From IMG/VR virus record IMGVR_UViG_2529293240_000016: 15,032 nt of DNA, one strand, 5' to 3'. The DNA comes from a virus (lineage: Duplodnaviria > Heunggongvirae > Uroviricota > Caudoviricetes). Below are positions 5,927 through 12,756 of this stretch, one piece after another (the first letter of the stretch is position 1; the number at the start of each line of letters is the position of its first letter). The translations under genes and the position numbers were made by a program. Below the pieces are notes generated by a model. It had not been told where the DNA came from and did not search any database. It worked only from the letters and a program-made list of their open reading frames with translations.

Positions 5927-6140
5927 ACTGAGCGGATCGGCATATTTTACCCGAACTGAATCATGATTATTCTCGCCCGTGGTGCCAGGACGCTGGGGCC
6001 ACTTTCCCGCCTGTTAATGTGCTCGCCAATATTCATTACCAGGCGGGAAAACGATCGGTGCGATTACTGATTTCCTTATGAAAAACGGTTGAGTGTTTGC
6101 CGCGTCCTGGAGTTCCTTACTTAACCCCAGGACTTTTTTT

Positions 6141-7298
6141 ATGCAGAGAATAATCGAATTACGCCAGCAGAAAACCGCCATTAAAAATCAGATGCGCGAC
6201 ATGCTGGAGAACGCTGAAAAAGAAAACCGCAGTCTTAACGATGCTGAGGGCGCAAAATTTGACGAATTACGCGCTAAAGCTGAATCCCTCGATAAAGACA
6301 TTTCCCGCCTTGAAGCCATTGCAGACGAAGAGCGCAGCAAGCCAGGTAAAAGCAGCCAGACCACTGACCCCGCAGAACTACGCAACTACATTCTGACCGG
6401 TGAAACCCGCGCATTAAGTACAGGCGTTCCCGCTGATGGTGGTTATACCGTTATCCCTGAACTGAACACCGAAATCATGCGAATGCTGGCGGATGAATCC
6501 ACCATGCGCCGCATCTGTACCGTGAAGAAAATCAGCAGCAACGAGTTTAAGCAGCTTGTTTCCGCTGGCGGTGCGACCGTTAACCACGGTGAAGAGGGTA
6601 AGGCACGCGAACAGACCAGCACCCCGCAGATTAACGAGGTGAGCATTAAGCTGTATCCGGTCTATGCGTACCCGCGCACCACACAGGAAATCGTGGATTT
6701 TTCCGATGTGGACATCCTTTCATGGCTGACGGGTGAGATTGGCGACACCTTCACGGAAACCGAAGAAAGCGATCTGGTTGTGGGCGACGGTGACAAAAAA
6801 GCAAAAGGTTTTTTATCCGTACCCCGTGCAGAGAAGAACGACAAAGAGCGTGATTTTGGTACGTTGCAGGTAATTAAACCTTCCGAATCTCTGGCGTGGA
6901 CATCTGCGGACCCGCTGATCGACCAGAAATTTGCATTACGTAAAAAATACCGCAAAAACGCGGTCTGGGTGGTTAACTCCACGACGGCGGCAAAACTTCA
7001 GAAGGTGAAGAACGCGAACGGTGATTATATCTGGCGCAACCGTTTACAGGCGGGTGATCCTGATACGTTGCTGGGCCTTCCGGTCGAATATCTGGAGTTT
7101 ATGCCTGATAACGTTATTGCCCTGGGTGACTTCAAACGCGGTTACTACATTGTTGATCACGAAACAGGTGTTCGCACCAGACCGGACAACCTGACAGAAC
7201 CAGGATTCATCAAAATTTTCACGCAAAAATATTTAGGCGGTGGCGTGGTGGATTCGAACGCGATCAAGATTCTGGAACTGCCGGAAGACGACGATTAA
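6141..7298 (+). CDS. Major capsid protein, HK97 family, with N-terminal scaffolding-like coiled-coil domain
   Basis: About 385 aa; charged coiled-coil N-terminus followed by an HK97-fold-like body. Start is ambiguous: ATG 6141 (no clear SD) or GTG 6093 as in the ORF track. Confidence 0.85.
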   Translation: MQRIIELRQQKTAIKNQMRDMLENAEKENRSLNDAEGAKFDELRAKAESLDKDISRLEAIADEERSKPGKSSQTTDPAELRNYILTGETRALSTGVPADGGYTVIPELNTEIMRMLADESTMRRICTVKKISSNEFKQLVSAGGATVNHGEEGKAREQTSTPQINEVSIKLYPVYAYPRTTQEIVDFSDVDILSWLTGEIGDTFTETEESDLVVGDGDKKAKGFLSVPRAEKNDKERDFGTLQVIKPSESLAWTSADPLIDQKFALRKKYRKNAVWVVNSTTAAKLQKVKNANGDYIWRNRLQAGDPDTLLGLPVEYLEFMPDNVIALGDFKRGYYIVDHETGVRTRPDNLTEPGFIKIFTQKYLGGGVVDSNAIKILELPEDDD

Positions 7299-7308
7299 CA
7301 GCATACAG

Positions 7309-7337
7309 AAGGGGCTAAAAAGCCCCTTTAGTGTTTT
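7309..7337 (+). terminator. Hairpin/attenuator after the capsid gene
   Basis: AAGGGGCT-aaaa-AGCCCCTT followed by TAGTGTTTT; likely partial terminator. Confidence 0.45.
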
Positions 7338-7910
7338 ATGGGTGAAAAAATTATGAAGAGTATGGAAATCCGGTCATCGGAAATCACCACCAGCGGAGCC
7401 GGTACGCTGACGGGCTACGTTGTTCGCTGGGATAAGCTTTCAGAACTGTTATGGGGTGAGTTTTACGAAAAATTCCAGCGGGGGGCGTTTACTGAATGGC
7501 TTGCGGCGGGTAATGACGTTCGCGGCCTGTATGAGCATGACCACAGCATGTTACTGGGGCGCACCCGTTCCGGCACGCTGAAACTGGAAGAGGACGAAAC
7601 AGGGTTACGCTTTGAACTGACCCCACCGGATACCAGTACAGGGCGCGACGTTATCGAACTGGTTAAGCGTGGGGACATCTCGGGGATGAGCTTTGGCTTT
7701 CGCTCCCGTAAGGATGTATGGGATACCACAACAGATCCATGCGTGCGCACCGTGCTGGTGGCGGAACTGTACGAAATTACCGTTACATCGGTACCGGCTT
7801 ACCCCGATTCCGGCGTGGAGCTGGCCCGCCGTTCCCTGTATGAGCAGCACCCCGAAAAAATGCCGCGTGCGGATAATCGCCGCTGGTGGGCGGATTTAGC
7901 GGGGGTGTGA
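7338..7910 (+). CDS. Prohead maturation protease, HK97 family (S78-like)
   Basis: 190 aa; motifs GYVVRWDKLSE, EHDHS, GMSFGF; sits between capsid and portal. Alternative starts at 7353 or 7362. Confidence 0.85.
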   Translation: MGEKIMKSMEIRSSEITTSGAGTLTGYVVRWDKLSELLWGEFYEKFQRGAFTEWLAAGNDVRGLYEHDHSMLLGRTRSGTLKLEEDETGLRFELTPPDTSTGRDVIELVKRGDISGMSFGFRSRKDVWDTTTDPCVRTVLVAELYEITVTSVPAYPDSGVELARRSLYEQHPEKMPRADNRRWWADLAGV

Positions 7911-7911
7911 T

Positions 7912-10357: not shown

Positions 10358-10478
10358 TGAGGCTGTATGACGGGGTGGGGGCGTTTTCAGGACAAACCCG
10401 ACCCCGCCGGGCACCGAACGCCTCCCCAAATTTTTATGCACGGGAATTTTTTGAAAAATAATCTGACGAAAAATAAGC
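10358..10478. promoter_or_regulatory. Candidate cos / packaging site between HNH and terS
   Basis: GC-rich blocks (GGGGTGGGGGCG, GACCCCGCCGGGC, CGCCTCCCC) next to an AT-rich stretch, at the position where HK97-like phages place cos. Confidence 0.3.
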
Positions 10479-10835
10479 ATGGCAAGACCACCGAAAGCCC
10501 CCGCCTACCTGGATGATATCGCCGTGAAGCAGTGGCGGGAAAAATCGCGGCAGCTTGCGGAACGGGGAGACCTGACCCCCGCCGACTGGAGCAATCTGGA
10601 ACTGTATTGCGTCAACTACTCCATTTACCGGAAAGCCGTTGCAGACCTTGCGGCGCGCGGGTTCAGCATTGTTAACAGTCAGGGCGGCGAGAGCAGAAAC
10701 CCCGCATTAAGCGCAAAATCCGACGCTGAAAGAGTGATGATAAAAATGGCCTCCTTGCTCGGTTTTGACCCGATAAGCCGCCGTAAAAATCCACCGGAAA
10801 CAGAAGAAGAGGACGAGCTTGACTGCCTGGAATAA
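10479..10835 (+). CDS. terS: Terminase small subunit, P27-family-like
   Basis: 118 aa, acidic C-terminal tail; immediately upstream of and overlapping terL. Confidence 0.75.
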   Translation: MARPPKAPAYLDDIAVKQWREKSRQLAERGDLTPADWSNLELYCVNYSIYRKAVADLAARGFSIVNSQGGESRNPALSAKSDAERVMIKMASLLGFDPISRRKNPPETEEEDELDCLE

Positions 10836-12461
10836 GTACGCAGAAGACGTAAAAACGGGCAAAATTCCGGCCTGTAAACGGTTAAAACAGGCTGTTAAAC
10901 GGTACTTTTCGGACCTTAAAAGCCCCCTTTACACGTTCGATCGTGAGGTTGTGGAGCGGTTTATTGCCTTTTCCAGGGTGTGCCCGCACGTAAAAGGACC
11001 GATGCGTGGCAGACCCATTGAGCTGGAGCCGTGGCAGCAGTTCGCCTTTGCGTGCATCCTCGGCTTTAAGGTTAAGGCCACCGGACGGCGCAAATACACG
11101 AGCGCCTTTATCGAAGTGCCGCGCAAAAATGCGAAATCCACGACCGCCGCGATTCTGGCTAACTGGTTTCTGATTATGGAGAACGGTCAGCAGGATATCT
11201 ACACCGCAGCGGTGAGCCGTGACCAGGCGCGGATCGTGTTTGATGATGCGCGTCAGATGTGCCTTTTATCCCGACCGTTACGCAGGCGGGTGAATATTCA
11301 GGCGCATAAGGTGATACACCCGAAAAGCAACAGCCTGTTAAAGCCGCTGGCAGCAAAAGCGGCAACCATCGAGGGGACAAACCCCAGTCTTTCCATCGTG
11401 GACGAATACCACCTACACCCCGATAACGGCGTTTATTCCGCGCTTGAGCTGGGGATGGGCGCACGTCCCGAAGGGCTGTTATTTGCCATTACCACATCGG
11501 GCAGTAACGTCGTTTCAGCCTGTAAACAGCACTATGATTATTGCTGCCAGATCCTGGACGGCGAAGAGGTCAACGATTCAATTTTTGTACTGATTTACGA
11601 ACTGGACGACGAAAACGAGGTTGATGATCCGGCGATGTGGATAAAGGCGAACCCTAATATTGATGTTTCCGTGGATCGTGAAAAACTGGCCTCAACCATC
11701 CAGAAAGCGCGGGGTATTCCGTCGCAGTGGGTGGAGATGATGACAAAGCGATTTAATATCTGGTGTCAGGGGACTACCCCGTGGATGGGTAATGGTGCAT
11801 GGGCTGAGTGTGCCGGAACGTTCACGGAGGAAGATTTACACGGTCAGGAGTGTTACGCGGGGCTGGACTTATCATCAACCAGCGATATTTCCAGCGTATG
11901 CTATGCCTTTCCGGTCGGTAAAACCATTATGCTGATTTCCCGTCATTATCTGCCGGAGTTCCAGCTACAGAACCCCGCCAATAAAAACCGCGCTGTCTAT
12001 CGCCAGTGGGCTAAAGCGGGCTGGATACGCACAACGCCAGGTGACTGCATTGATTACGACCGGATCAGAGATGACATCATGCAGGATGCGGAGAAATTTA
12101 ATATCAGGCTGGTGGGCTTTGATACGTGGAACGCCACGCATCTCAGGACGTTGAGGTGGAGCCGTTCCCGCAAACCTACCTCAGATTCAGTCCGGCGGCG
12201 AAATCGTTCGAAGTTTTTGTTAACCGCAGGGTGATTGTGCATCGTGGCGATCCGGTGTTGTCCTGGTCGATGAGTAACGTCGTGATGCAGAGTGACGCGA
12301 ACGCCAATATCAAGCCGAACAAGAAAAAATCACCGAACAAGATAGACCCGAGCGTAGCGGCGCTGATGGCGTTTGGTACATTCCAGGCAGAGCATGAGGC
12401 TTTTGCTTTTGATATAAGCGACAGCCACCGCCAGAAACTGGAAGAATTTAGCGGGGTGTAA
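10819..12461 (+). pseudogene. terL: Terminase large subunit with a 1-nt frameshift near 12142-12146
   Basis: TerL-like N-terminal ATPase region in frame 1 (10819..12234) and TerL-like nuclease C-terminus in frame 3 (ending 12461, ...IVHRGDPVLSWSMSNVVMQSDANANIKPNKKKSPNKIDPSVAALMAFG); the frames meet near 12144 after ...FDTWNATHL. Total about 547 codons, normal for TerL. Confidence 0.8.
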
Positions 12462-12474
12462 TGAGGTCAGCAGC

Positions 12475-12756
12475 ATGACAGAAGCCGAAATACTGCGATT
12501 AATCCGCCGCGTCTCTGGAATCAGCCAGCAGGCTGACGAACAGACCACGCAGCCGGACAGCGTGACAGCCGAAAATTATGCGCGTGTTGTTGCTGAGGTG
12601 ATGCGCCGTGATGGTATCCAGCTTAATGATGCGGATATGCGCGACATACGGATCCGCGTTCTGGAAATGCTGGCCTACAATCGCCGCGTTGAACTGTATC
12701 GGGAGAAGGAGAAAATCACGTACCACTGGAAGAAGCCGGAGCGGTTACGGCGGTAA
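12475..12756 (+). CDS. Hypothetical protein (93 aa), last island ORF
   Basis: ATG with SD-like TGAGGT; charged protein; no recognisable motif. Confidence 0.45.
   Translation: MTEAEILRLIRRVSGISQQADEQTTQPDSVTAENYARVVAEVMRRDGIQLNDADMRDIRIRVLEMLAYNRRVELYREKEKITYHWKKPERLRR

Follow-up and report, generated by a model that had tools for sequence, protein, structure and literature searches.

Analysis of a 15,032-nucleotide stretch of DNA filed as a virus of the Caudoviricetes (IMG/VR record IMGVR_UViG_2529293240_000016; the whole stretch is called the window below) revealed that it very probably carries the head-and-packaging half of a decayed capsid-forming phage-inducible chromosomal island (cf-PICI) of the EcCIEDL933 lineage, occupying the roxA-phoQ site of Shigella flexneri serotype 3a strain J17B. 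The lineage has already been described, and the J17B copy is a degraded member of it. The window is 100% identical, base for base, to contig AFOW01000015.1 of assembly GCA_000217895.2 and 99.98% identical to CP100042.1, the chromosome of strain J17B (PMC10732043), from which it differs in three homopolymers only.

Genes were called from a six-frame listing of open reading frames (ORFs) together with Pfam and PHROG profile searches. The searches identified the eight families that an initial annotation, made from the letters alone, had named as a contiguous module: major capsid protein, prohead protease, portal, two head-completion proteins, HNH endonuclease, TerS and TerL. All of these genes lie on the plus strand, adjoin one another, mostly overlapping by a few bases, and match their families with E-values from 1e-11 to 1e-148 (Table 1). 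The capsid, prohead protease and portal are all full length. The order is capsid-protease-portal, then Hc1 ahead of Ad1, then HNH-terS-terL, and the unusual arrangement already pointed out, including a head-closure gene ahead of the gp6-like gene, is real by profile matches. The span given for the module, 6093-12756, does contain these genes and is too wide at both ends: the capsid start is annotated at 6141, 6093 being an upstream GTG, TerL ends at 12461, and the last ORF is no demonstrable head gene. This last ORF, a 93-aa gene (phrog_1561), is also the last gene before phoQ in the capsid-less PICI of Escherichia coli O157:H7 TR01 (locus L021, 7001-7282) and about 900 complete E. coli genomes have it but not the head module. 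It is therefore part of a right end common to PICIs, not of the machinery that builds heads.

The element was compared with EcCIEDL933, which resides in E. coli O157:H7 EDL933 and is the prototype of the cf-PICIs. EcCIEDL933 has a published size of 15.4 kb (Alqurainy et al., 10.1101/2022.09.08.507074), and the 15,461-bp element found in EDL933 between the same two core copies at roxA-phoQ matches this size. The two elements have in common the roxA-phoQ site, the 10-bp core, int, alpA and the order capsid-protease-portal-Hc1-Ad1-HNH-hyp60-terS-terL-hyp93 (hyp60 and hyp93 are the hypothetical genes of 60 and 93 aa). The ten proteins of the head and packaging region are 93.5-100% identical to those of EcCIEDL933: capsid 98.4%, protease 97.9%, portal 98.8%, Hc1 95.5%, Ad1 98.0%, HNH 99.3%, hyp60 100%, TerS 99.2% and TerL about 98.7%. 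From capsid to TerL the protein alignments are full length and gap-free, TerL excepted, and at the DNA level identity is 96.6% across window positions 5496-12758.

The biology of the prototype is well documented. Knockout of each gene of the EcCIEDL933 packaging module abolished transfer, one hypothetical gene excepted (transfer severely reduced), and mutational analysis established that the island depends for its own transfer on its capsid, portal, connector, HNH, TerS and TerL genes, while the helper phage was unaffected (10.1101/2022.09.08.507074). Knockout of helper head genes left island transfer unchanged; knockout of helper tail genes abolished transfer of both. EcCIEDL933 makes its own small capsids, packages itself only and requires just the tails of the helper (10.1101/2022.09.08.507074). 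A later study reported that cf-PICIs release tail-less DNA-filled capsids and that the choice of tails is determined by adaptor and connector (10.1101/2025.02.11.637232). By analogy with these steps, which are established in the literature for the prototype, an intact element of the J17B type would be switched on at alpA by a helper phage, excise through Int and replicate through its own Rep. Its capsid, protease and portal would assemble small HK97-type heads, and HNH, TerS and TerL would cut concatemers at the island's cos, at the putative position given below, and fill the heads. Head-closure protein and adaptor would finish the portal vertex, and the tail-less heads would dock onto helper siphovirus tails.

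SatelliteFinder defines cfPICI by 11 core components and forbids tails and holins (PMC10085698). With int and alpA included, the element carries all 11 of the 11 core components (int, AlpA, primase/replicase, capsid, prohead protease, portal, Hc1, Ad1, HNH, TerS and TerL; int, terL and the replication gene rep are present as broken genes) and no forbidden tail or holin component. In the Pfam and PHROG searches no tail, tape-measure, holin or endolysin family was found in any ORF between attL and attR. The capsid-forming architecture proposed in the initial annotation is borne out by the shared site and core, the near-identical proteins of a published cf-PICI and the complete set of components.

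That annotation had also implied a working satellite, and here only the class stands, since the J17B copy carries three independent lesions, in terL, rep and int. In terL, whose family assignment was right, DNA alignment to relatives revealed a 19-bp deletion (CAATTACAGGGGGCTGGTT) between 12150 and 12151, inside the nuclease domain. The deletion yields a 471-aa truncated product (10819-12234) with the ATPase and most of the nuclease domain, plus an orphan C-terminal fragment; by tblastn, the last 100 TerL residues sit in another frame, ending at 12461, the switch falling at aa 444/452. With the missing 19 bp reinserted in silico, TerL regains its normal length of 553 aa. A programmed frameshift was considered for terL and rejected on account of the 19-bp deletion relative to all relatives and of a sister strain without the deletion. 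Four independent assemblies, among them the finished J17B chromosome, contain the deletion junction, and one sister strain with the same IS1 lacks it; the deletion is therefore real and recent.

In rep, a complete IS1 lies between two identical copies of a 9-bp target duplication (GTACATGAT), one at 2808-2816 and one at 3585-3593. Other sequencing runs produced more than 10 contigs with this insertion. Against the intact 584-aa primase of E. coli RM6927, rep was recovered by tblastn in two pieces, and in-silico removal of IS1 and one copy of the target duplication gave an open 582-aa frame. In int, 2 bp inserted near codon 336 put the C-terminal 74 residues out of frame, and three assemblies have this insertion. 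The IS1 insertion and the int frameshift are common to sister strains, and the terL deletion arose after both. Exact-protein look-ups of the TerL pieces and of the right half of rep returned the source assembly only; a look-up of the capsid gave independent assemblies. No lesion affects the five head genes, HNH, terS or alpA of the J17B copy.

Because packaging mutants of the prototype do not transfer, and the excision and replication genes are damaged as well, the J17B copy is, as far as can be judged from its genes, most likely a recently inactivated and immobile relic. With terL, rep and int broken, production of its own capsids with self-packaging is not expected of this copy. The decay is consistent with the expansion of insertion sequences (IS) and pseudogenisation typical of Shigella.

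Several points weigh against the reading of the element as a decayed EcCIEDL933-lineage cf-PICI and have to be set beside it. The element was read from its sequence alone. Its rep is of another type (582-aa D5_N/DUF5906, compared with a 710-aa DUF927 protein in EcCIEDL933), and the two Rep proteins are related in the N-terminal 228 aa only, at 53%. This difference in the replication module is ordinary PICI mosaicism, and the J17B element is a mosaic variant of EcCIEDL933, not the same element; module swapping in the int-proximal half has been described for PICIs and cf-PICIs (PMC10085698). The source draft assembly carries homopolymer errors, and a second int frameshift in it is a homopolymer discrepancy, probably an artefact. 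The terL deletion, as noted, is missing from one sister strain, in which terL is intact. In principle, a co-resident element may complement terL, int or rep in trans.

Some of these points would also serve the view that the J17B element is a fully functional, mobilisable cf-PICI whose lesions are tolerated, artefactual or complemented in trans, and the five head genes, HNH, terS and alpA are indeed intact and almost identical to those of the working prototype. However, a 19-bp deletion seen in four assemblies, one of them finished, is no homopolymer error, IS1 and its target duplication recur in contig after contig, the 2-bp int insertion is repeated across assemblies, and mutations in packaging genes abolish transfer in the prototype. 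Full function is therefore very unlikely. As for the draft itself, window positions 1913, 10376 and 13305 are the sole differences from CP100042.1, and they are likely to be draft-assembly errors because each is a single-base change of homopolymer length; the one at 1913 touches the overlap between the DUF4222 gene and rep.

A different role for the broken copy can be imagined, in which it still expresses its head genes and the empty, tail-less heads soak up the tails of HK97-like siphoviruses as a decoy defence co-opted by the host. This proposal rests on nothing beyond the intactness of the head genes. The lesions are simple and polymorphic, with the terL deletion not shared by one sister strain, which indicates very recent decay and argues against domestication; we consider such a decoy highly improbable.

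Head and terminase proteins of phage families, in a visibly decaying copy such as that of J17B, would be expected of a defective HK97-like prophage that has lost its tail, lysis and lysogeny-control genes and never was a satellite. The distribution of the element argues otherwise. At least 80% of the head and packaging stretch (window 6093-12756) is covered in 410 of the 5,426 complete E. coli genomes, and all six relatives studied closely, diverged copies with 76-80% DNA identity among them, have the same tail-less layout from int to terL, at roxA-phoQ or at a second site, hpt. A compact 15-kb layout with int, alpA, rep and clean att cores, repeated in relatives at two sites, speaks against a deletion remnant, and the gene order is unlike that of HK97 phages. 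The capsid was also compared with a collection of 50,697 phage records. The nearest capsids with complete-looking records are those of vB_KppS-Ant (16.5 kb, 65%) and Pasteurella Pmp8 (15.3 kb, 57%), both satellite-sized; two other matches at 64% come from a 106.5-kb Klebsiella record, at its extreme end, and a 3.8-kb fragment. Capsids of genuine 37-41-kb phages reach 33-40% identity at most. By this comparison the capsid does not cluster with an ordinary prophage, an outcome that the initial annotation had named as fatal to its proposal, and the near-identical prototype is an experimentally proven satellite. The tail, tape-measure and lysis modules of a complete HK97-like phage were found neither in the 15.6-kb element nor in its flanks. 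A defective prophage is scarcely credible on this evidence.

The probability is negligible for a P4-type satellite that redirects the capsid of a P2-like helper and uses the helper's cos and terminase: the Arm-DNA-binding integrase, AlpA, Icd-like ORF and D5/primase-helicase type rep do resemble the left half of P4, but no Sid, Psu or Delta-like protein family was found in any ORF, capsid, portal and a complete terminase, all missing from P4, are encoded by the element itself, and SatelliteFinder keeps P4-like and cfPICI as separate families (PMC10085698).

Table 1. Features of the J17B element and its right flank. Positions are those of the window unless the source contig is named.
Feature	Position	Strand	Evidence or remark
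Integrase int	left of window, source contig (L003) 6234-7464		matches EcCIEDL933 Int across all 409 aa; pseudogene
AlpA-type regulator	source contig (L003) 7838-8026, 60 bp left of window		PF05930; 98.4% identical to EcCIEDL933 AlpA
Left regulatory region, just downstream of alpA	1-956	+	
Variable 248-aa ORF	1-747	+	67% identical to EDL933 ORF at same position
Icd-like small ORF	756-956	+	100% identical to EDL933 over 60 aa; PHROG repressor-like match
DUF4222 gene, precedes replication gene in these PICIs	1622-1921	+	PF13973 2.2e-24
Replication gene rep, primase/helicase type	1918-4443	+	D5_N, DUF5906 and Pox_D5; split into 1918-2816 and 3585-4443
IS1, 768 bp, complete	2817-3584	-	InsA/InsB ORFs; DDE_Tnp_IS1 annotation in source contig
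Accessory small ORFs between replication and head modules	4723-5840	+	PHROG families of unknown function
HK97-fold major capsid protein, 385 aa	6141-7298	+	PF05065 Phage_capsid 7.7e-61; phrog_10
Prohead serine protease S78	7338-7910	+	PF04586 Peptidase_S78 7e-48
Portal protein	7912-9123	+	PF04860 Phage_portal 4.8e-90
Head-closure protein Hc1	9120-9458	+	PF05521 Phage_HCP 7e-24; phrog_25
gp6-like head-tail adaptor Ad1	9455-9751	+	PF05135 Phage_connect_1 1e-11; phrog_40 5e-35
HNH endonuclease, packaging cofactor of HNH-dependent cos terminases	9751-10191	+	PF01844 1.8e-8; phrog_144 8e-45
Conserved 60-aa hypothetical ORF between HNH and terS	10175-10357	+	phrog_3173 7.5e-37
Conserved intergenic spacer, candidate cos	10358-10478	.	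120 bp, directly upstream of terS
Small terminase subunit TerS, P27/Terminase_4	10479-10835	+	PF05119 1.3e-23
Large terminase TerL pseudogene, ATPase and nuclease domains	10819-12461	+	two ORFs both match TerL_nuclease
93-aa hypothetical gene, right end	12475-12756	+	phrog_1561 1.5e-55
Non-coding right arm of element	12757-13563	.	bears 21-bp repeat 13451-13471
attR core GGACATATTT	13564-13573	.	element/host junction, overlaps phoQ stop codon
phoQ, host gene outside element	13572-15032	-	annotated phoQ in all matching E. coli genomes

The ends of the element were set against the empty roxA-phoQ site of E. coli K-12 and define an att-flanked chromosomal island of 15.6 kb, including IS1 (0.78 kb). 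The att core is 10 bp (GGACATATTT), with one copy 60 bp beyond roxA and the other at window 13564-13573. In J17B, EDL933 and RM6927 alike, each end of the element bears a copy of the core; the empty K-12 site has a single copy, as GGGCATATTT, and the K-12 alignment breakpoints land on the core. The host junction had been placed at the right end of the last gene, 12756, and is in fact the attR core, about 800 bp farther right. Leftward extension along the source contig, which the initial annotation had proposed as a way to find int and alpA, showed potABCD, pepT, roxA, the integrase and alpA in this order before window position 1; both genes lie just left of the window, int being frameshifted. 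Host housekeeping genes, roxA/pepT on one side and phoQ/phoP on the other, bound the element and leave no room for tail genes. The claim that tail, tape-measure and lysis genes have no space therefore holds for the whole att-bounded element, and none was found contiguous with the module in the wider locus.

Between the last gene and attR, small minus-strand ORFs at 12918-13265 gave no Pfam or PHROG family match, and the region is therefore treated as non-coding attP-arm DNA. A repeat search between both ends in three genomes identified a 21-bp direct repeat (CGGTGTAGTTAATGGTGTAGT) at window 13451-13471 and at source contig (L003) 6187-6207, next to int; it is itself an internal GGTGTAGTTAAT doublet, sits about 100-125 bp from the att core on each arm and is kept in EDL933 and RM6927. 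These repeats probably serve as arm-type sites for the integrase. Just inside attR, at 13516-13548 and a few bases from the phoQ stop codon, there are also short tandem TTGACTTGA-like repeats.

The spacer between the 60-aa ORF and terS is a candidate for cos. Among relatives with just 76-80% overall identity, it retains long invariant blocks, and across the diverged relatives it was seen to be better conserved than the adjoining coding sequence. The linear record of vB_KppS-Ant starts and ends within the equivalent spacer and is without about 70 bp equivalent to window 10394-10462. These findings are suggestive of a cos at 10358-10478, adjoining HNH and terS as in HK97-like phages, and on computational grounds the conserved 120 bp point to where cos probably lies in the family.

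The left part of the element had been described as a P4-like replication and regulation module. Its role is correctly given and the label is loose: it is the int-alpA-rep half common to cf-PICIs and classical E. coli PICIs (10.1101/2022.09.08.507074; PMC10085698). The gene after alpA falls in a region known from the PICI literature to be variable. Here it is the ORF at 1-747, which matched nothing in Pfam, PHROG or Rfam. In O157 it is listed as a hypothetical protein, and its translation is unusual in being rich in Cys, Ser and Arg; within it, at 447-626, a YlcI/YnfO-like small ORF runs in the antisense direction. At gathering thresholds, Rfam recognised no RNA family anywhere in the window, which leaves a P4-type CI or antisense RNA in region 1-747 unsupported. 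The DUF4222 gene occupies the same position in EDL933, RM6927 and MFDS1006657. In the accessory region, 5313-5474 is an ssb/perC fusion remnant made by deletion, consisting of the first 25 ssb codons and the perC tail, and tblastn of intact ssb and perC gave fragment matches only. As the remnant is common to E. coli MFDS1006657, it is older than the Shigella-specific decay. A PADLOC scan of the accessory and right-arm ORFs found no defence-system match.

The significance of the J17B element goes little beyond annotation. Strain J17B is a serotype 3a archetype and is used in vaccine-related work, and its roxA-phoQ island is better labelled a cf-PICI of the EcCIEDL933 lineage than a 'cryptic prophage'. 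It offers a modest example of a cf-PICI locked in place and eroding by IS expansion and pseudogenisation, and its ordered, simple lesions could date inactivation within the S. flexneri lineage that carries the IS1 insertion.

HK97 and HK97-like cos phages with HNH-dependent terminases, such as the helper HK106, encode the same families of head and packaging proteins, and in both groups HNH adjoins terS and the cos, which is a presumed one in the J17B element. The phages have the order portal-protease-capsid and Ad1-Hc1, whereas J17B has capsid-protease-portal and Hc1-Ad1 and is without their tail, lysis and immunity genes. In vB_KppS-Ant (LR881103.1) the annotated head and packaging genes are the same, and int and a primase gene are present as well; it and Pmp8 are satellite-sized records deposited as phages, with other hosts, other accessory genes and about 65-70% DNA identity. 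In vB_KppS-Ant a 765-aa gene after terL (L024 2036-4333), annotated as tape-measure, had no Pfam match and is probably a misannotated accessory gene, not a tail gene. A diverged cf-PICI at roxA-phoQ in E. coli E200139 (L022 10761-12710) has no separately annotated head-closure gene; it carries portal, one connector and HNH, with a ProQ/FinO-family gene in its accessory region.

Classical capsid-less E. coli PICIs, such as that of O157:H7 TR01, have the same att site, the DUF4222-rep-ssb-perC left half and the terminal 93-aa gene. They carry only a redirection module (capsid-like, decoration and TerS genes) and rely on helper heads and helper TerL, in contrast to the J17B element with its portal, protease, connectors, HNH and TerL. 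Unlike EcCIEDL933, the J17B element has partly different accessory genes with the fused ssb and perC remnant, IS1 in rep, the 19-bp terL deletion and the int frameshift, and about 390 bp of its right arm (12758-13148) are unrelated to EcCIEDL933. The closest elements overall among complete E. coli genomes are the cf-PICIs of RM6927 and MFDS1006657, both at roxA-phoQ, with 96-97% identity over 84-85% of the window and the same primase type (82-95% aa identity). MFDS1006657, like J17B, bears the ssb/perC remnant; unlike J17B, both are free of IS1 and have int, rep and terL intact.

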